Assembly (NCBI GenBank): GCA_019313695.1
Contig: JAFDAS010000001.1
Span: forward strand, 530 to 64,529
DNA length: 64,000 nt
Direction: 5' to 3'
Source: Deltaproteobacteria bacterium
GTDB lineage: Bacteria; Desulfobacterota; Syntrophia; Syntrophales; UBA2210
Below the pieces are notes generated by a model. The model was given only the letters and a program-made list of their open reading frames with translations. It had not been told where the DNA came from and did no database searches. The position numbers and the translations under genes are program-made. Shown piece after piece: positions 40,937 through 48,587 of this stretch (positions within the stretch are counted from its first letter, which is position 1; each line of letters begins with the position of its first letter).

Positions 40937-40970
40937 CTCTTACCCTTATTTGATTTGCAGATATCTTTCA

Positions 40971-41615
40971 ATGGAAATTTTGATGGCTCCACAAAATATT
41001 CAATTTATAAAATATCTTTTTGTATGTTCCCTGCTTCTGGCCAATATCATTGCGTCTAAGATCATCGTGGTGGGAGGGCTGGTGCTGCCCGCGGCGATCA
41101 TCCTCTATCCTCTTACCTTTCTCTTCACCGATGTGGTGGCGGAGGTTGAGGGTAAAAAGAGCGCCGGCAATCTTGTCATGACGGGTTTTTACATGTCGCT
41201 GTTCATGGTGCTTGTGATATTAGCGGGCAAGCTGCTCCCGCCGGCCGGGTTCTGGAAGCACCAGGAGGCGTACAACATTATCCTCGGATCAACGCCGAGG
41301 ATAGTGGCGGCATCCATGATAGCATATATAATATCCCAGAAGCACGATGTGTGGGCGTTTCACTGGTGGAGAAAGAAAACCGCGGGAAGGCACCTGTGGC
41401 TGAGGAATAATCTTTCGACGATTGTTTCCCAGTTGATCGATTCCGTCCTGTTCATAACCATAGCCTTCTGGGGCACATTCCCTCCGGCGGCAATAGGCAT
41501 GATGATCCTCAGTCAGTATCTTGTCAAGATAGGAATAGCCATTCTTGACACACCGATTTGTTACATCTTAGTGAGGTTTTATGGAGGCAATAGAGAACAG
41601 GTACAGAGAGCGTGA
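40971..41615 (+). CDS. yhhQ: Queuosine-precursor transporter (YhhQ/DUF165)
   Basis: Six-TM protein. ..LLLANIIASKI.., ..YPLTFLFTDVV.. and ..SQLIDSVLF.. match the YhhQ family. Overlaps queF. Confidence 0.8.
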   Translation: MEILMAPQNIQFIKYLFVCSLLLANIIASKIIVVGGLVLPAAIILYPLTFLFTDVVAEVEGKKSAGNLVMTGFYMSLFMVLVILAGKLLPPAGFWKHQEAYNIILGSTPRIVAASMIAYIISQKHDVWAFHWWRKKTAGRHLWLRNNLSTIVSQLIDSVLFITIAFWGTFPPAAIGMMILSQYLVKIGIAILDTPICYILVRFYGGNREQVQRA

Positions 41616-41946: not shown

Positions 41947-41983
41947 CCGTCGGCTGAATTAGCCTTGATACTCATTGTTAGCC
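41947..41983 (-). repeat. attC-like site A (left half only) of the hicAB cassette
   Basis: Minus strand: GGCTAAC (41983-41977, inside the hicB 3' end)...GCTAATTCAGCCGACG. This shares 16 nt with site G, and the second arm is missing. It ends at the queF stop codon. Confidence 0.6.
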
Positions 41984-42333
41984 CGTGATACATCAGCATG
42001 TAGAATTGTTTTTTTTAATACTTTCACACAAAAATTGTTTAAACTTTCATCGGCTTGCATTGCCTTAATAGCAAGGGCTTTATGCAAATCACTGTCAATT
42101 CGTAACTGAAACTTACCAGAATATTTTTTTGCCGTAATACTTGAAGGTAAAGGAATTTTATCTTCTTCATAAATTTCGATCCATTCTTCGAGTATCTGAC
42201 CCAGTTGATGATAAACTTCTACCTCATTGTCACCATGGCAACATTGCCCGATCCAACCAGGAATTGAACCAATATAACATTGATCTTCATCCGACCATTC
42301 AACAATTTTTAAGTAGCGATCTCTCTTTTTCAT
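41959..42333 (-). CDS. hicB: HicB-family antitoxin
   Basis: HicB fold N-terminus (..YLKIVEWSDEDQCYIGSIPGW..) plus a C-terminal RHH-like ..HKALAIKAMQADESLNNF... Confidence 0.85.
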   Translation of the reverse strand: MKKRDRYLKIVEWSDEDQCYIGSIPGWIGQCCHGDNEVEVYHQLGQILEEWIEIYEEDKIPLPSSITAKKYSGKFQLRIDSDLHKALAIKAMQADESLNNFCVKVLKKTILHADVSRANNEYQG

Positions 42334-42524
42334 TTTTCAGACCTCTTAATTTTACTCTCGACCTCTTTTTCTTGATAATGCTTTGCGTCATCCCCAAGTT
42401 TACCGGAAACCGTAATAGCAATTCCTTTGGGATGAATAAAATTACGATGGCTTCCCTTACCACCTCTATTAATAAAACCTGCTTTTTCAAGGTCCTTAAT
42501 AAGTTGTTTGATTTTTCGGGCCAT
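42330..42524 (-). CDS. hicA: HicA-family mRNA-interferase toxin
   Basis: MARKIKQLIKDLEKAGF..GKGSHRNFIHP.., 64 aa. ATGA overlap with hicB. Confidence 0.85.
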   Translation of the reverse strand: MARKIKQLIKDLEKAGFINRGGKGSHRNFIHPKGIAITVSGKLGDDAKHYQEKEVESKIKRSEK

Positions 42525-42530
42525 GAAATT

Positions 42531-42559
42531 ATAGTATCAATGTGATATCAAAAAGTCAA
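42531..42559 (-). promoter_or_regulatory. Cassette-internal promoter for hicAB, probably giving a leaderless mRNA
   Basis: Minus strand: TTGACT, 17 nt, TACTAT, then aatttc, then ATG. No SD is present. Confidence 0.45.
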
Positions 42560-42581
42560 TATAAACTCTTTGAAAAGGATG

Positions 42582-42640
42582 GGCTAACGCTAAAGTTCAC
42601 CGGCGCCGCTTGCCGGCGTCCGGTGCAGCGCCTTGTCCCC
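42582..42640 (-). repeat. attC-like site B (GNAT cassette), R'' degenerate
   Basis: Minus strand: GGGGACAAGGC-gctg-caccgg(a)cgcc-ggcaagc-ggcgccggtg-aactttagc-GTTAGCC. The stem has one extra base on the 5' arm. Confidence 0.6.
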
Positions 42641-42645
42641 TGTAA

Positions 42646-43182
42646 TTACCAATAGGCCGGATCATTGAATTCCTTAACGCATATAGGACGTTCATTGATA
42701 GTTGGAATTGGCTCTCCCGTTAAAGACTGGCCCAGCCAACCTTCAGGCATTGAAAGCTTAATCGGAGCCTGAATGACATTTTCTGACAGAGCTTGAAAGC
42801 CCACTTTGGAGTAAAAAGACGGATCACCATATGTGATAGCGACAGCCACAGATCGATTCTTCAGTTCATTAAGGCCATGATTGATAAGAGCCTGTCCAAC
42901 TCCCTTTCCTTGATGCTCTGTGTTAATAGCAACAGGCGCAAGCATGTAAACCTGGATAGCCTCTTTGAATTGAAGCCGACTAAAGAAAATCGATCCAATG
43001 ATTGATTTTTCTACGTATGTGCCAAAACAGATAATGTTCTGATTGTCGATTCCTGAAGATAGCTCCGAGACAAGATTGCCAATCAGCTTTCCTTCTTTCT
43101 CTCCCTCTGATGATGTGAAAACCGACGTAAAAAGATTTGTTACTTCGTCTTGACTGTTTTTATCGAGAGTTTTGCAATTCAT
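42646..43182 (-). CDS. GNAT-family N-acetyltransferase
   Basis: Acetyl-CoA motif A ..APVAINTEHQGKGVGQALINHGL.., 178 aa. Confidence 0.85.
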   Translation of the reverse strand: MNCKTLDKNSQDEVTNLFTSVFTSSEGEKEGKLIGNLVSELSSGIDNQNIICFGTYVEKSIIGSIFFSRLQFKEAIQVYMLAPVAINTEHQGKGVGQALINHGLNELKNRSVAVAITYGDPSFYSKVGFQALSENVIQAPIKLSMPEGWLGQSLTGEPIPTINERPICVKEFNDPAYW

Positions 43183-43220
43183 GCTTTTCCTTCAAATTAG
43201 TTTCGTGCAATTGCTCGGGG

Positions 43221-43351
43221 ACATAACGGTGAAGCTGAGGGGGCGGGCAACGATAACCAAAAACCATGATAAAGGTAAAAACTATCGCTTAAATACTACC
43301 TTTCAAAAGCGGCACAGCTTTGCCCCGTCCATCTCAAGCGCTTGGTTCGCT
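43221..43351 (-). repeat. attC-like site C (phd-vapC cassette), long variant
   Basis: Minus strand: AGCGAAC-c-aagc(gct)tgag ... ctcagctt-cacc-GTTATGT. The 3' half resembles the 3' half of site D. Confidence 0.6.
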
Positions 43352-43375
43352 GTTTTGTTATATTATTACAAGATG

Positions 43376-43753
43376 TTATGGCCTGAACCTTTTTATTTTC
43401 AGGTCTTTCAAAATTTTGTAATGTTTATCGTTCCCTGTAAGAACAGGATTACCATAAGTGATTGCCGTGGCTCCGATGAGCGCATCTGCCAGTTGCATTG
43501 AATGACTTAGAAAATGTTGCTCAACGTAAAACATTGCTTTGGCAGATATCTCTTCGGAAATATAGAGAATTTTAGCATTCCAAATATGCAGAGCTTTGCG
43601 GAGATTGTTTAATTCTTTTTTGTTTCTCATTCCTTGGACAAGTTCCATATAGGTCACAACAGAAATAAAGAAATTGCTTGAATTCTCAATAACTTGATAT
43701 GCATTCTCATTTCCTTTTAAATACCAAATGAGGACATCAGTATCGACTATCAT
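43376..43753 (-). CDS. vapC: PIN-domain toxin VapC
   Basis: MIVDTDVLI.., ..YMEL.., ..ADALIGATA.. are the acidic PIN residues. Abuts the antitoxin stop. Confidence 0.85.
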   Translation of the reverse strand: MIVDTDVLIWYLKGNENAYQVIENSSNFFISVVTYMELVQGMRNKKELNNLRKALHIWNAKILYISEEISAKAMFYVEQHFLSHSMQLADALIGATAITYGNPVLTGNDKHYKILKDLKIKRFRP

Positions 43754-43987
43754 TTAGAATCTTCCTTTTCTTAAATTTCTAACGTACTCATTAACATTAT
43801 CGACAATATCATTATCATTCCACATTCCAAACACTTCATTTTCTTCTGTTTTATTCTTAAGTTTCTGGTAGGGAACAAGCTTGGCGCAGGGCTTTCCACG
43901 GAAAGTGATAACGACCTCCTCACCTCTTCTGACAGAATCAATGAGTTCTTTTGAATGAAACCTCAGATCTTTTGCTGTGGCTTTCAT
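43754..43987 (-). CDS. Phd/YefM-family antitoxin
   Basis: ..DLRFHSKELIDSVRRGEEVVITFRGKPCAKLVP... An AGGAGG RBS is present. Confidence 0.8.
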   Translation of the reverse strand: MKATAKDLRFHSKELIDSVRRGEEVVITFRGKPCAKLVPYQKLKNKTEENEVFGMWNDNDIVDNVNEYVRNLRKGRF

Positions 43988-44019
43988 GATACCTCCTACA
44001 AATTAAGTTTACATTTAAA

Positions 44020-44048
44020 AGTATAAACTCCCCGCCAATCTGAGTCAA
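44020..44048 (-). promoter_or_regulatory. Cassette-internal promoter for phd-vapC
   Basis: Minus strand: TTGACT, 17 nt, TATACT. Confidence 0.5.
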
Positions 44049-44092
44049 TCATTTTTTTTGAGACGATGTTACTTGCGTTGGATGATTTTTAC

Positions 44093-44157
44093 AGCGAACG
44101 AAAAGCTCAGCCGGAGCGGCCCAGCGGGCCGCGATCGGCTGGAGCGACGGGTTAGCG
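44093..44157 (-). repeat. attC-like site E (4-TM protein cassette)
   Basis: Minus strand: CGCTAAC...GTTCGCT. The 65-nt site differs from site F at two internal positions plus the boundary 7-mers. Confidence 0.75.
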
Positions 44158-44175
44158 TCCTTTTTGGTATATATT

Positions 44176-44607
44176 TTATGCCAGAAAGAACCACGCGACT
44201 GCCAGGATGAGTCCACATACATCACCAACCACTACGCCCCAAAAGTTCCCGACTTGATTCGATAGCCACCCTTTTTCGGAAGTTTGGAACTCTGCTCGTG
44301 TTTGCGCCTGCTTCCGCGCAAGCTGAACGTCCTTCTGGATTGAAATGGTCAATATCAACACGGATGCGAAAAACGGAAATAGTGTAAATGTCCCAGGACC
44401 CACTCCCCAATTAAAGACACACCACCCAAATGCCACTGCAGAAACGACACCTCCTATACCTGCAACAATGCCAGCGATTGCAGAACGCACATAGACGGAT
44501 GCTTTGATTAGTGCGAAAGCTATGGGCACGGTAGCCACAAATGTGCCCAACCTGAATGCTAAGTAGGATAGAGGCAATACCAATACATATGCGAATATCG
44601 TTTTCAT
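44176..44607 (-). CDS. Hypothetical small membrane protein (about 4 TM)
   Basis: 143 aa with four hydrophobic segments. No recognisable family. Confidence 0.55.
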   Translation of the reverse strand: MKTIFAYVLVLPLSYLAFRLGTFVATVPIAFALIKASVYVRSAIAGIVAGIGGVVSAVAFGWCVFNWGVGPGTFTLFPFFASVLILTISIQKDVQLARKQAQTRAEFQTSEKGWLSNQVGNFWGVVVGDVCGLILAVAWFFLA

Positions 44608-44615
44608 TTATACCC

Positions 44616-44677
44616 CGCTAACGTTACCGGTGAGGGGCGCGGATTTTTTCGCGTCCCCTCAACCGGGGGGTTATAAC
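44616..44677 (-). repeat. attC-like site D (zinc-ribbon cassette)
   Basis: Minus strand: (G)TTATAAC-ccc-ccgg(t)tgagggg(a)cgcg-aaaaaatc-cgcgcccctcaccgg-taac-GTTAGCG. Two extra bases on the 5' arm. Confidence 0.75.
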
Positions 44678-44685
44678 TGATTTTA

Positions 44686-45060
44686 TCACGAAACAGGGTA
44701 ACGGTCTGGTGGAAATTCATAGCCACAAAAAGAGCAAAAATTACTGTCGTCTCGGATTATTTTCTTGTTACAGTTTGGGCATTTTTCAAAATATTTGGTT
44801 CCACATTGGCAATATATTCCAGGGCTTTTTGCATCAATCCCGATTTCGCAATCTGGGCAATACTTATAGTATTTTGGTTTGGGGGTAAGTATAGATGAAC
44901 GAGATTTGGATATTCTTAGGTAAATATATACACCCGATAGAAACACCAGAGCAATGGTTGCCCATAGTGGCGTTGGTGATTGGATGGTATCTTGCAACCA
45001 GGTCCACGTATTTTTTGCAAAAAGATAAATACCTCCAAGACTCAGCACTGCCGCAGACAA
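44686..45060 (-). CDS. Membrane-anchored double zinc-ribbon protein
   Basis: Two N-terminal hydrophobic helices. C-terminus CPDC..CQCG..CPNC..CSFCG. The only available start is TTG/GTG and is uncertain. Confidence 0.5.
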   Translation of the reverse strand: MSAAVLSLGGIYLFAKNTWTWLQDTIQSPTPLWATIALVFLSGVYIYLRISKSRSSILTPKPKYYKYCPDCEIGIDAKSPGIYCQCGTKYFEKCPNCNKKIIRDDSNFCSFCGYEFPPDRYPVS

Positions 45061-45162
45061 TATTATTCCAACGGTTGCTTGGCGCAGTCAGAAAATATTG
45101 TTTTTGTCATTTTTAATAATAATTGTTTCATGGTCATTGATTTATCATATCGCACATTAGAG

Positions 45163-45227
45163 TTATAACGAAAAGCTCGGCCGGAGCGGCCCCGCGGGCC
45201 GCGATCGGCTGGAGCGACGGGTTAGCC
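45163..45227 (-). repeat. attC-like site F (259-aa orphan cassette)
   Basis: Minus strand: GGCTAAC...GTTATAA. Same family as site E. Confidence 0.75.
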
Positions 45228-45235
45228 GTCGTTAT

Positions 45236-46015
45236 TCAATCATTGCCATCCACCGCTGGTATTTCAAAAGGATGTTTTTCGGTATAGCTTTTAAGATTTT
45301 TCTGAAATTCGACAATTCTATTCTCAATCTCACTGAGCTTATTATCTGCTATATGAATAAACACTTCTCTCCAATAGAGTAACCAAATGTTGAAATAAGT
45401 CACTAGAACACACGCCAGCCATTTATGAAAATCATCATGTTTTTCCTCATAATCGAAATACTTTGCCAGAAGCATACTACTTCCCTTGTCTTCTTGGTAT
45501 CTGTGTAATATGCCTAATGCGTCCGAATGCGAGTAAATACTACAAAACTCATGGATTTCCGGGAGGCCTTTCGCAAGAGGAAATTCTTCTATATTGTCAT
45601 TTATCGTCCGCTTGATATTCCTGAAGGTCTTATTCCATTTTTTTAACATTTCTTTATTTTTATCATCACCCAATTTACTTAAATATACATCTAATTTCTC
45701 AGGATATTTAAGTAGATAATAAGACGTAAAAGCACTATCTAGTGCTGATCTCATGCATTTGAAGGAAATAGCTTTGTGCAACCTCAAATATGAAGATATT
45801 GAATTGTAAAATTCTGCATTTACTATCAGATAAAGAAATATAGGCATTTTCAGTGATCGATCATCTATTGGCCGCAATTCGGTACAACTTCTATACAAGA
45901 CATCTAAGTTATGGATCAAAAAAAAATCATTTCCTAGATTTGCAATGTTTCCAAACATATGGCTTTCTTCAATACCAAAATATTGAATGATATCTTTTAT
46001 GGTATCTGTACTCAT
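45236..46015 (-). CDS. Hypothetical protein, 259 aa, predicted all-alpha, no family recognised
   Basis: Clean ORF. RBS aggtga lies 6 nt upstream of the ATG, and the start is only 10 nt after the attC core. AT-rich codon usage. Confidence 0.6.
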   Translation of the reverse strand: MSTDTIKDIIQYFGIEESHMFGNIANLGNDFFLIHNLDVLYRSCTELRPIDDRSLKMPIFLYLIVNAEFYNSISSYLRLHKAISFKCMRSALDSAFTSYYLLKYPEKLDVYLSKLGDDKNKEMLKKWNKTFRNIKRTINDNIEEFPLAKGLPEIHEFCSIYSHSDALGILHRYQEDKGSSMLLAKYFDYEEKHDDFHKWLACVLVTYFNIWLLYWREVFIHIADNKLSEIENRIVEFQKNLKSYTEKHPFEIPAVDGND

Positions 46016-46025
46016 ACTTTCACCT

Positions 46026-46085
46026 GGCTAACGCTGCTAATCAGCCGCGCGGTTTTTTGCGTCGGCTGAATTAGCAGCGTTCTGC
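46026..46085 (-). repeat. attC-like site G (DUF4268 cassette)
   Basis: Minus strand: GCAGAAC-gctgctaat(t)cagccg-acgcaaaaaaccgcg-cggctgattagcagc-GTTAGCC. One extra T on the 5' arm. Confidence 0.8.
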
Positions 46086-46088
46086 GAT

Positions 46089-46904
46089 TTAGGTGTCTGA
46101 TTCCTTGATTTTGTTGTAAACATCTTCACCAAACTTGGTCAGTTTTTCACGTATGTCGGGCCAATGATCGTGGTCCTTCTTTCCCTTGTCCAAGACAGGG
46201 AAAATAATACTTGCGAACTTAGGCGACTCACGCAACTCGTAAGTGTACTCTGTTCCCGGGAACAGTTCTAAAACTTTGGTCCTTCGATCCAGCCTTTCAT
46301 TACCTTGGAATGAGAGGAGGACGGAGCACGCATGATTGTGGAGTTGAAGAAGAAGGCTGATGCCCTTGATTCCCTTTCCGATCCAACCTTCATCTCGCAC
46401 AGGCACCGGTTTGCCAGCAAACAATCCACTCTTCCGGATTGGCTCCCAGAATTCGCTGTATTCCACACCAGTTCTTTCAGTTTGCACATCAATTGCAGGT
46501 CGAGCCACATGGTGAAAGGAAAGCTCGTTATGCAAGTTCACCTGAGCTTGGATTAGATACCAATCCGTCTTGCTGTCCTCATTCCGGAGATTGCAAGTTA
46601 CTATCATGAGTTCCTCAAAATTCTCCGCAACGAGTACCGCGACATTGGCTTCCTTCAGTCTCGCATACGCCTCTAATCGTCCCCAGTGGTCCCAATCCGC
46701 CCGGCCAAATTGATTCTCAATAACAAGAATACCATCATCACCCACGGCAACAATGTCAGCCTTTCGAGTGCCTACCTTGGACTCAGTTTCTGCATCCTCA
46801 AACGATCCAACCCCAAGAGATGCAACGTTATTTGCGAGATCTAACGAGAAATCCTCTTCGCGGTTGTAAACGGTTGACAAGGGTTTTGACTGCTGTAGTT
46901 TCAT
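46089..46904 (-). CDS. PD-(D/E)XK nuclease-like N-domain plus DUF4268-type C-domain protein
   Basis: ..KADIVAVGDDGILVIENQFGRADWDHWGRLEAY.. is a D..E.Q nuclease-fold pattern typical of DUF4268 proteins. Start set at MKLQQ (RBS gaagga). The ATG at 46925 overlaps the recombination core. Confidence 0.65.
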   Translation of the reverse strand: MKLQQSKPLSTVYNREEDFSLDLANNVASLGVGSFEDAETESKVGTRKADIVAVGDDGILVIENQFGRADWDHWGRLEAYARLKEANVAVLVAENFEELMIVTCNLRNEDSKTDWYLIQAQVNLHNELSFHHVARPAIDVQTERTGVEYSEFWEPIRKSGLFAGKPVPVRDEGWIGKGIKGISLLLQLHNHACSVLLSFQGNERLDRRTKVLELFPGTEYTYELRESPKFASIIFPVLDKGKKDHDHWPDIREKLTKFGEDVYNKIKESDT

Positions 46905-46916
46905 AGTTTTTCCTTC

Positions 46917-46923
46917 GCAGAAC
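46917..46923 (-). repeat. 5'-most cassette boundary core GTTCTGC
   Basis: Exact reverse complement of GCAGAAC, which opens site G. No convincing attC palindrome lies immediately upstream of it. Confidence 0.6.
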
Positions 46924-47184
46924 ATTTACATATAAGGCAATTTTGCCTGATACCCTGATATTGAACCGACAAACAGGCAAATTTGCTTGTTTTCAATATT
47001 CAATATAGGAGGGAAAAGGGATCAGACTCCTTTTCCTTCCCAGTTTTGTTTCTCCTCTTTCAGACACTTGAGTATTGTCTGTTATGGCAGGGAGATGTTT
47101 TTGTCAACAAAAAAAGGGGACAAAGGGTACGTTGGTGAAATGTTGACATTTTTCCATCGGTGGATTCACTTCGCTTAATCCACC

Positions 47185-47650
47185 CTACAACCTATTCTTT
47201 GACATGATGACGTATCTGCCGGTTACGCCGATTATTTTTCTCTTTTGCATGGCGGATACAACATTGGTCTGAAATCGTTCGGAAGAAAGGGAAGCCTGAA
47301 TGATATGGGTTTCCTGCCAGCCGCTTTGGTTTAAAATTCGAAGGTAATCATTGATTAAATTCGAATTTGTCCGGGTCTCATTTTCGGCAGGGGTGCTCTG
47401 GATCAAACACCAGATCGTTCTGATCTAAAAAATAGTTGTGTTTTTCGGCTATCTGAGGAACTGTGAAGCCTCTGGACAGGTCGGTATTTATTGAATTTGG
47501 CAGTGTTGCCATTTTCAATAAATGGTGATGAAGCTCGGCTTTTGGCTGATTTGCCAATACTGGCATTTTGGCTAAATGGTTCGATATTGTCTTTTGTGGA
47601 AGGCCCAATCTCTTTGCGATCCTGTCCTGGGTTATGCCGAGGCGGTTCAT
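47185..47650 (-). pseudogene. HTH-domain gene apparently disrupted by a frameshift
   Basis: Two overlapping minus-strand ORFs in different frames (47378-47650 and 47185-47406). The first begins with an HTH (LGITQDRIAKRLGLPQKTISNHL). Confidence 0.4.
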
Positions 47651-47800: not shown

Positions 47801-47878
47801 ATTGACGGCATTTCTTCTCACAATCAATTAAGTTGTCGTTTCCCCGGAATTCTGGGGAATTCCGGCAAAAATACATGC

Positions 47879-47907
47879 TTGATTTCTGGATCATGCTGAC
47901 CTATATT
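47879..47907 (+). promoter_or_regulatory. Candidate sigma70 promoter for the phd/parE module
   Basis: TTGATT, 17 nt, TATATT. The palindrome ccggaatt-ctgggg-aattccgg lies at 47844-47865 just upstream. Confidence 0.5.
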
Positions 47908-47943
47908 AAGACCAGAAAAAAAGTCAATATAAGGAGCTTTATT

Positions 47944-48228
47944 ATGAAAGTAATATCAATTTCAAATGATATCGTCCCAATTGCAGAATTTAAGACAAGC
48001 ATCTCGAAATGGTTCAAAAGCCTCAAGAATACGGGACATCCCTTGATTATTACGCAGAATGGCAAACCTGCCGGGGTTCTGTTATCGCCAAGCGACTACG
48101 ACGAATTAGTATATAAAAAGTCTTTTCTTGATTCCATTGGAAGAGGAATATCGGATGCCGATAGTGGAAGGACTTACCCTGCTGAAGAAATCAAGACAAC
48201 ATTAGCTGCGAGAAGAAGCAAGAGATAA
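47944..48228 (+). CDS. Phd/YefM-family antitoxin
   Basis: MKVISISNDIVPIAEFKTSISKWFKSLKNTGHPLIITQNGKPAGVLLSPSDYDEL... RBS AAGGAG. The upstream 37 codons of the ORF track were rejected. Confidence 0.8.
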   Translation: MKVISISNDIVPIAEFKTSISKWFKSLKNTGHPLIITQNGKPAGVLLSPSDYDELVYKKSFLDSIGRGISDADSGRTYPAEEIKTTLAARRSKR

Positions 48229-48234
48229 TCACCG

Positions 48235-48531
48235 ATGAAAATAATTTGGACACAAGAAGCTCTTGAGCAATTAATCGAAATTGAAGATTATATTTCGAAG
48301 GACAGCGGGGATCGAGCGGAAAGATTTGTCAATCAACTTATTGAACATGCTGAATTATTGCCTGAGAACCCTCGTTTAGGCCGGACGGTACCGGAAATCG
48401 CTAATCCCACCATAAGAGAATTAATATTCAAAAAGTATAGAATAGTTTACAGACTAAATGAAGATAGCGTTGAAATATTGACTGTTTTTGAAGGACATAT
48501 GCTCTTGCGAATCGACGAAACCAAGGTGTAG
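48235..48531 (+). CDS. RelE/ParE-family toxin
   Basis: MKIIWTQEALEQLIEIEDYI..ERFVNQL..LPENPRLGR..RELIFKKYRIVYRL..VEILTVFEG. Confidence 0.8.
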   Translation: MKIIWTQEALEQLIEIEDYISKDSGDRAERFVNQLIEHAELLPENPRLGRTVPEIANPTIRELIFKKYRIVYRLNEDSVEILTVFEGHMLLRIDETKV

Positions 48532-48587
48532 GATTATCTTTTTCTTATAACTATGCATACCCCGGAATTGTTGTTCGCAATATGTAC

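Follow-up and report, generated by a model that had tools for sequence, protein, structure and literature searches.

A mobile gene cassette in an attC array of a Deltaproteobacteria genome encodes a protein of an undescribed family

Integron arrays hold very many genes of unknown function, and according to recent screens many of these protect against phages. Here we ask what such a gene is, and what it might do, for one case: an open reading frame (ORF) of 259 amino acids (aa) on the minus strand of contig JAFDAS010000001.1, which comes from a metagenome-assembled genome (MAG) of a Deltaproteobacteria bacterium (assembly GCA_019313695.1). The whole stretch of DNA that was analysed, hereafter the window, comprises the 64,000 nucleotides between positions 530 and 64,529 of the contig, and coordinates are counted from its first letter. 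As a genetic element the locus is an ordinary integron cassette in a CALIN, which Cury and colleagues, in the 2016 work on IntegronFinder, are said to define as a cluster of attC sites lacking an integron integrase. The protein encoded by the cassette belongs to an undescribed family without detectable fold relatives. Without a phenotype the cassette is one of thousands of similar unknowns; the evidence that it offers is unusually clean, consisting of defined boundaries, mobility, purifying selection, a deep family, two high-confidence structural models and candidate catalytic residues.

Boundaries and mobility of the cassette

The preliminary description of this DNA had seen in the locus a single-gene cassette bounded by two attC-like sites. 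Both sites were found by a covariance model (CM), which was built on six attC sites of an independent, unrelated metagenomic array (L028) and was run over all 64 kb with filters off, and both obey the rule that applies to cassettes which were once circular (Table 1). The secondary structure of the model is well supported, 88% of the cells being paired, with 5 compensatory pairs, versus 30-44% in slid controls. Hand-written scanners for attC hairpins were either too strict or too noisy, and the sequence rule described below was used together with the CM instead. Besides the matches listed in Table 1 and a weak one (E 0.21) on the opposite strand of the near-palindromic 46026-46085 site, no CM match with E<1 was found across the 64 kb, and an Rfam scan of the whole window gave no matches.

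The cassette begins with the TTAGCC behind the crossover point of the upstream R' and ends with the G of the downstream R'. Its 5' end, read on the gene strand, is GTTAGCC-AGGTGA-AAGT-ATG, in which the R' core occupies 46032-46026 and the ATG 46015-46013; the sequence resembling a ribosome-binding site (RBS) and the start codon are indeed located right behind the recombination core, as had been described. The upstream attC is part of the preceding cassette, which codes for a 278-aa protein. It has R'' GCAGAAC at 46079-46085 and R' GTTAGCC at 46026-46032, and its 19-bp stem, which contains one extra T in the 5' arm, is paired over nearly the whole length. In the cassette's own attC (R'' GGCTAAC at 45221-45227, R' GTTATAA at 45163-45169) a 5-nt unpaired spacer stands on either side of a bulged stem. 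The two sites share the AAC...GTT ends and the extra unpaired bases in the 5' arm of the stem. GGCTAAC, the R'' of the cassette's own attC, exactly complements the R' at the 5' boundary, GTTAGCC, and not the adjacent R' GTTATAA, as expected of a cassette that was once circular. Six junctions between 41977 and 46923 follow the same rule, in that each R'' is exactly the reverse complement of the R' in the preceding site, and every cassette boundary of the array is thereby fixed.

Table 1. Coordinates of the cassette, of its recombination sites and of the neighbouring features in the window
Feature	Position	Strand	Remarks
Coding sequence, 259 aa, ATG start	45236-46015	minus	predicted soluble all-alpha protein, uncharacterised family
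Complete gene cassette	46031->45169	minus	863 bp; R'/R'' rule and CM matches
Leader	46016-46025	minus	10 nt; RBS-like AGGTGA at 46025-46020, 4 nt 5' of the ATG
Upstream attC	46026-46085	minus	inverted repeat I11; CM R1 29.9 bits, E 3e-6
Cassette's own 3' attC	45163-45227	minus	CM R1 41.7 bits, E 8e-10
CM match	44093-44157	minus	full length, E 9e-11
CM match	42582-42641	minus	full length, E 9e-4
CM match	44616-44676	minus	full length, E 0.13
attC array (CALIN)	41977-46995	minus	at least 7 co-oriented attC sites
278-aa ORF of the upstream cassette	46089-46925	minus	no Pfam match
143-aa membrane-protein cassette	44176-44607		
Vut_1 transporter gene	40950-41615		one border of the island
Gene of a small HTH protein	47378-47650		between array and pilQ
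Phd/ParE pair	47833-48531	plus	pilQ end of the island
pilMNOPQ operon	from 48588		other border of the island, pilQ end

That the cassette moves can be seen from a homologue with 85% identity (P0004), which is present in arrays L028-L030. This copy agrees with the window cassette in its 5' junction, GTTAGCC...AAAGTATG, and in the R'' behind the stop codon, GGCTAAC, but its attC has a different stem, and it is surrounded by other genes: upstream stand AbiGi and DUF4145 cassettes, and a gene of 171 aa follows downstream. Because the boundaries are the same and the stem and the neighbours are not, the unit moves as a cassette. There is hardly any doubt that the locus is a real mobile integron cassette, which was moved between arrays by attC recombination. 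The CM also finds attC sites at the ends of the homologues in L004 (an array of seven sites), L010, L031, L036 and L037, and the homologue in L007 obeys the boundary rule.

Some observations on the arrays themselves can be added. L028:1-7034, with its AbiGi and DUF4145 cassettes, is an array of nine attC sites in which the R''/R' chain rule holds at eight consecutive junctions. The cassette of L031 has a degenerate 5' core and looks like a fossil. In the window, the attC sites 45163-45227 and 44093-44157 stand behind unrelated genes and differ at 2 of 57 nt (AACCCGTCGCTCCAGCCGATCGCGGCCCGC[G/T]GGGCCGCTCCGGC[C/T]GAGCTTTTCGTT), which suggests recent exchange or homogenisation within the array.

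The protein family, its structural models and conserved residues

The 259-aa protein had been called an orphan of no recognisable family. The first half of this description has to be given up: there are more than 180 homologues, 76 of which match at E<1e-48, these 76 each being about 250 aa long and lacking Pfam annotation, an exhaustive profile search yielded 214 clusters at 50% identity, and a search started from a distant member found 107 further homologues, which make up a sister subfamily. A profile search with the broad alignment A2 brought almost no new members. The second half is still true for the curated libraries, as the window protein had nothing above threshold in Pfam, NCBIfam, PADLOC and PHROGs. 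Profile searches of the PDB sequences with three alignments gave chance matches only, and Foldseek searches with two AlphaFold models gave no match in PDB or BFVD. A confident match to a housekeeping family was not obtained.

The gene is conserved. Twenty-three residues are invariant across 42 sequences, down to 40% identity, and the ratio of nonsynonymous to synonymous substitution rates (dN/dS) was 0.12-0.22 when the gene was compared with copies that are 84-85% identical as protein; the gene is under purifying selection. The family is widespread but rare. With search patterns derived from the alignment of the close subfamily we found 14 loci in 185,579 species genomes, all of them in MAGs, belonging to Nitrospirota, delta-proteobacteria, Omnitrophota, Planctomycetia and Peribacteria. 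The sole domain fusion seen was in P0215 (394 aa), in which the family domain (158-388) is preceded by an N-terminal extension of approximately 150 aa without Pfam match. Two members carry names in their source records, 'ABC-type antimicrobial peptide transport system permease subunit' (P0004) and 'SAM-dependent methyltransferase' (P0042), which were not supported by our searches and look like annotation errors.

The all-helical structure predicted in the preliminary description agrees with the AlphaFold2 model, apart from a single beta-hairpin. The model of the window protein, calculated with the family alignment (predicted local distance difference test, pLDDT, 88.8; predicted template modelling score, pTM, 0.87), is composed of five long helices together with a small helical subdomain and the hairpin at 173-184. 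The model of P0095, a sister-subfamily member whose identity to the window protein is only about 20%, shows the elements in the same order (pLDDT 93.3, pTM 0.91). The possibility of a membrane protein was also considered and ruled out: the highest Kyte-Doolittle mean over 19 residues is 1.29, thus no membrane helix is expected.

A His/Asp cluster had been noted as conserved-looking, and it is conserved: H155, C158, S159, H163, D165 and Y173 are invariant in 42 homologues. The complete set of invariant polar residues in these homologues consists of E16, E68, R89, D93, T97, K135, H155, C158, S159, H163, D165 and D188, with Y173 invariant as well. In the whole superfamily only R89, L151, S159 and H163 are still nearly invariant, and the sister subfamily retains the equivalents of R78, H80 and R172. 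On helix 3, R89, D93 and T97 follow one another at i, i+4, i+8, as do H155, S159 and H163 on helix 7, so that either set lines up as a stripe along a single face of its helix. In a mean-field direct-coupling analysis (252 sequences, effective number 194) the pairs D93-D165, A91-C158, R89-H163 and Y99-A148 were among the top 55 of approximately 31,000 pairs. Many helical i/i+7 pairs also ranked high in this analysis, which suggests that the coupling signal is real. From the spacing and the couplings we infer that the stripes of helix 3 and helix 7 probably face each other as one polar centre, and the covariation of these polar residues suggests a candidate active site or ligand-binding site.

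What the protein may do

So many invariant polar residues of this type, converging on a single site, speak for an enzyme, or at least for a specific ligand binder, rather than for a scaffold. We think that the 259-aa protein could be self-contained in this function. Its centre would lie where the stripe of helix 3 (R89, D93, T97) meets the stripe of helix 7 and the loop that follows it (H155, C158/S159, H163, D165), with H80, K135 and R172 close by. That an enzyme-like site is present appears, judged by the pattern of conservation, somewhat more probable than that it is absent. The nature of the substrate is a more tentative matter. The core of Arg, Ser and His (R89, S159, H163), together with the further His, Arg and Lys residues, would fit binding and cleavage of a phosphate-bearing substrate, which could be RNA, DNA or a nucleotide; we regard a phosphate-bearing or nucleic acid substrate as a guess that is somewhat less likely than not to be right. 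The additional His, Cys and Asp residues of the close subfamily might hold a metal.

With regard to the biological role, the neighbourhoods of the homologues were compared. Several of them are mobile or defence-like regions. The homologue in a Scalindua contig (L003) has HEPN_AbiU2 and resolvases nearby, another is located with SRA+HNH and an integrase, a third in an integrase/HTH/Rep element and a fourth with a MazG-like gene and two DNA methylases. A member of the sister subfamily (L033-L035; L033:7001-7747) is flanked by an HTH/Peptidase_M78 (ImmA/IrrE-like) pair on one side and a type III restriction-modification system on the other. A large serine recombinase and a DUF4011 helicase are encoded beside it, and these surroundings are those of a defence-island-like mobile element. 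The homologues are therefore not confined to core-genome contexts. Clustering of the neighbouring ORFs over 20 and then 55 loci detected no conserved partner gene, only lineage-specific synteny, and the same two sets of loci contained no conserved adjacent partner of the kind that a type II toxin-antitoxin pair would have.

The premise that integron cassettes encode anti-phage functions is found in the literature: cassettes of unknown function were reported to encode phage resistance often, at least one third of the mobile-integron cassettes of unknown function having conferred it in one screen (Kieffer et al., bioRxiv 10.1101/2024.07.02.601719). Like the bacteriophage-resistance integron cassettes (BRiC), the cassette described here has a single ORF and no promoter, a short leader that follows the R' core, and a 3' attC belonging to it; it occurs in various arrays with various neighbours, and many such cassettes have no recognisable domains. 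It differs from the BRiC in that its array is chromosomal, environmental (from a Deltaproteobacteria MAG) and integrase-less, and that it is known here from its sequence alone. Taken together, the lack of a conserved partner, the travel beside abortive-infection (Abi), toxin-antitoxin and restriction genes, and the prior given by the cassette screen make us prefer a protective effector. Such a protein would be conditionally active and act in the manner of abortive infection or of a stress response. We regard an anti-phage role as plausible but doubtful, and the functional reading as a whole, from the enzyme-like site to the protective role, is likewise one that we would sooner expect to fail in some part than to hold. 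The most specific version of it is unlikely: a new enzyme family with an undescribed all-alpha fold, whose two-helix Arg-Ser-His centre would cleave RNA or a nucleotide messenger, and which would act as a stand-alone protective effector triggered by infection or stress, spread by cassettes and domesticated at ybeY in one Nitrospirota clade.

In the window the protein would be expressed through read-through. A promoter scan of the cassette gave nothing above chance and there is no space for a promoter inside it, thus expression at this site would need transcription from the upstream cassettes.

A number of observations weigh against a protective effector. The cassette may be silent in its host genome, with no integrase or Pc promoter nearby. 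The putative active site was deduced from conservation and covariation only. No match to the protein was found in PADLOC-DB v2, and the 53 relatives searched gave only scattered single hits (E>=0.008). No copy was present in 72,556 plasmids (tblastn with the window protein and two distant relatives), in 50,697 phage records (tblastn with the window protein) or in an IMG/VR scan, whereas a widely shared defence gene would not usually be missing from plasmids and phages. In the Thermodesulfovibrionales/Nitrospiraceae at least seven loci of one clade (L026, L027, L051, L057, L060, L064 and L066) have the gene order queA-SPOR-phoH-7TM_HD-ybeY-homologue-PAS kinase, the homologue beginning approximately 35 nt after ybeY. 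In this clade the homologue diverges along with its neighbours (72-83% identity versus 83-92% and 64-76%), which indicates vertical inheritance in the Thermodesulfovibrionales clade, and for a defence gene such a fixed locus means slow turnover. Further copies in Nitrospirota are located at plain chromosomal sites with unrelated housekeeping neighbours. The ybeY-linked copy looks domesticated and is possibly co-transcribed. A related negative result, from a preprint on DUF5677, is mentioned below.

A different explanation is that the protein is a non-defence enzyme of RNA or nucleotide metabolism, acting in auxiliary RNA processing or nucleotide turnover with a general benefit for the host, and that the cassettes are spread versions of a gene domesticated in Nitrospirota. 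The conserved position at the end of the phoH-7TM_HD-ybeY operon, the co-divergence with the neighbours and the strong purifying selection speak for such a gene, the conserved centre, rich in Arg, His, Ser and Lys, fits a phosphate substrate here as well, and the lack of matches to defence models is in accord with it. However, the ybeY linkage was seen in one clade only, the neighbours elsewhere being unrelated, the distribution is patchy across phyla, with 14 loci in 185,579 species genomes when patterns of the close subfamily were used, and the low GC content together with carriage by cassettes and mobile elements fits an accessory rather than a housekeeping gene. We consider this explanation rather unlikely. 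The coexistence of mobile cassette copies and a vertically inherited ybeY-linked copy provides a natural comparison for establishing the role of the protein.

It is also conceivable that the protein is no enzyme but a non-catalytic binder of a metal, a small molecule or a macromolecule, serving as a sensor, as an immunity or antitoxin-like inhibitor or as an anti-defence factor. Many immunity and adaptor proteins are, like the predicted structure of this one, all-alpha with long helices, H155, C158, H163, D165 and D93 resemble a metal site in the close subfamily, and the cassette arrays are rich in toxin-antitoxin pairs. On the other hand, as 55 loci showed no conserved partner gene, the neighbourhood encodes no cognate toxin or target. 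For a simple binder, twelve invariant polar residues of the catalytic type are many, and the superfamily as a whole does not retain H155, C158 and D165, the putative ligands of the metal. A non-catalytic binder therefore seems improbable to us.

A third alternative is that the family is not a new kind of protein but a very distant member of DUF5677 or of the HEPN-type Abi RNases. Among 53 diverse relatives, DUF5677 (PF18928) was the only Pfam family with more than one matching protein (4 members, best E 0.0013), and 1 of 50 members of the sister subfamily matched it as well (E 0.014). It consists of uncharacterised helical proteins of similar size, and according to a preprint it is enriched next to serine recombinases, which also stand beside the homologues in L003 and L033. 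The window protein itself, however, gave no match to DUF5677 at E<=10, and the matches of the relatives (E 0.0013-1) are all far below the gathering threshold. The same preprint tested one DUF5677 ORF against six Enterococcus phages, and this ORF is not listed among the protecting ones, a further point that speaks against a protective role of the protein described here. The window protein has a weak match to another family, DUF5618 (PF18498; 15.1 bits, E 0.027), which covers residues 69-132 only and does not reach the gathering threshold of 33 bits, and none of the 53 relatives shares it.

The likeness to the HEPN-type Abi proteins (HEPN_AbiU2, AbiV, DUF4145) is more general. These are stand-alone all-alpha proteins of approximately 200-260 aa with conserved Arg and His residues, occurring in the same arrays as the homologues, and HEPN_AbiU2 and DUF4145 genes adjoin some of the latter. 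But the Rx4-6H motif is absent from the invariant and nearly invariant columns of the family, R89 and H163 being 74 residues apart and on different helices, the alignment of the family profile with the neighbouring DUF4145 and AbiU2 proteins by hhalign gave a probability below 1%, and Foldseek found neither a HEPN nor any other fold. A distant relationship with either group is very unlikely.

The last alternative, a non-functional or decaying ORF hitch-hiking in a dead array, for which one could cite the lack of an integrase, attI or Pc promoter in the window and of a promoter inside the cassette, and the fossil-like cassette of L031, is effectively refuted by 259 intact codons in DNA of 33% GC, by the dN/dS values and invariant residues described above and by hundreds of full-length homologues.

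Since no curated family and no solved fold was matched, the protein, for which we continue to prefer the role of a protective effector, lends itself well to study by expression and mutagenesis, and it may represent a new fold or enzyme class.

The array and its genomic setting

The array qualifies as a CALIN by its at least seven co-oriented attC sites with cassettes and by the absence of intI in 64 kb, and nothing notable sets it apart from that type. No integrase was found among the ORFs of the island, and the box II motif of tyrosine recombinases is absent from every frame of the 64-kb window, which covers all but about 1.7 kb of the source contig. As the window contains no integrase, the array was classified as a CALIN; a complete integron, with adjacent intI, attI and Pc promoter, was not found within the window. 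The cassettes encode the 278-aa protein without recognised function, the 259-aa protein, a zinc-ribbon membrane protein, the 143-aa membrane protein, a Phd/PIN pair, a GNAT acetyltransferase and HicAB. The island lies between the Vut_1 transporter gene and the pilQ end of the pilMNOPQ operon, and between the array and pilQ there is a small HTH protein and a Phd/ParE pair. The GC content of the gene of the 259-aa protein is 32.9%, versus approximately 50% in the flanking chromosome, which would fit a foreign origin.

The Phd/ParE pair at the pilQ end is in the opposite orientation to the other cassettes; around it there was no clear attC or attI, only a GTTATAA at 48545-48551. In the upstream cassette the listed ATG of the 278-aa ORF overlaps the R' core GTTCTGC (46917-46923), thus the true start is probably the ATG at 46904, which is preceded by GAAGG. 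The 143-aa membrane protein has a homologue at L004:144-575, on a contig of a MAG labelled Nanoarchaeia. The 259-aa protein likewise has a homologue on that contig, and hence at least two cassette families are common to the two arrays.

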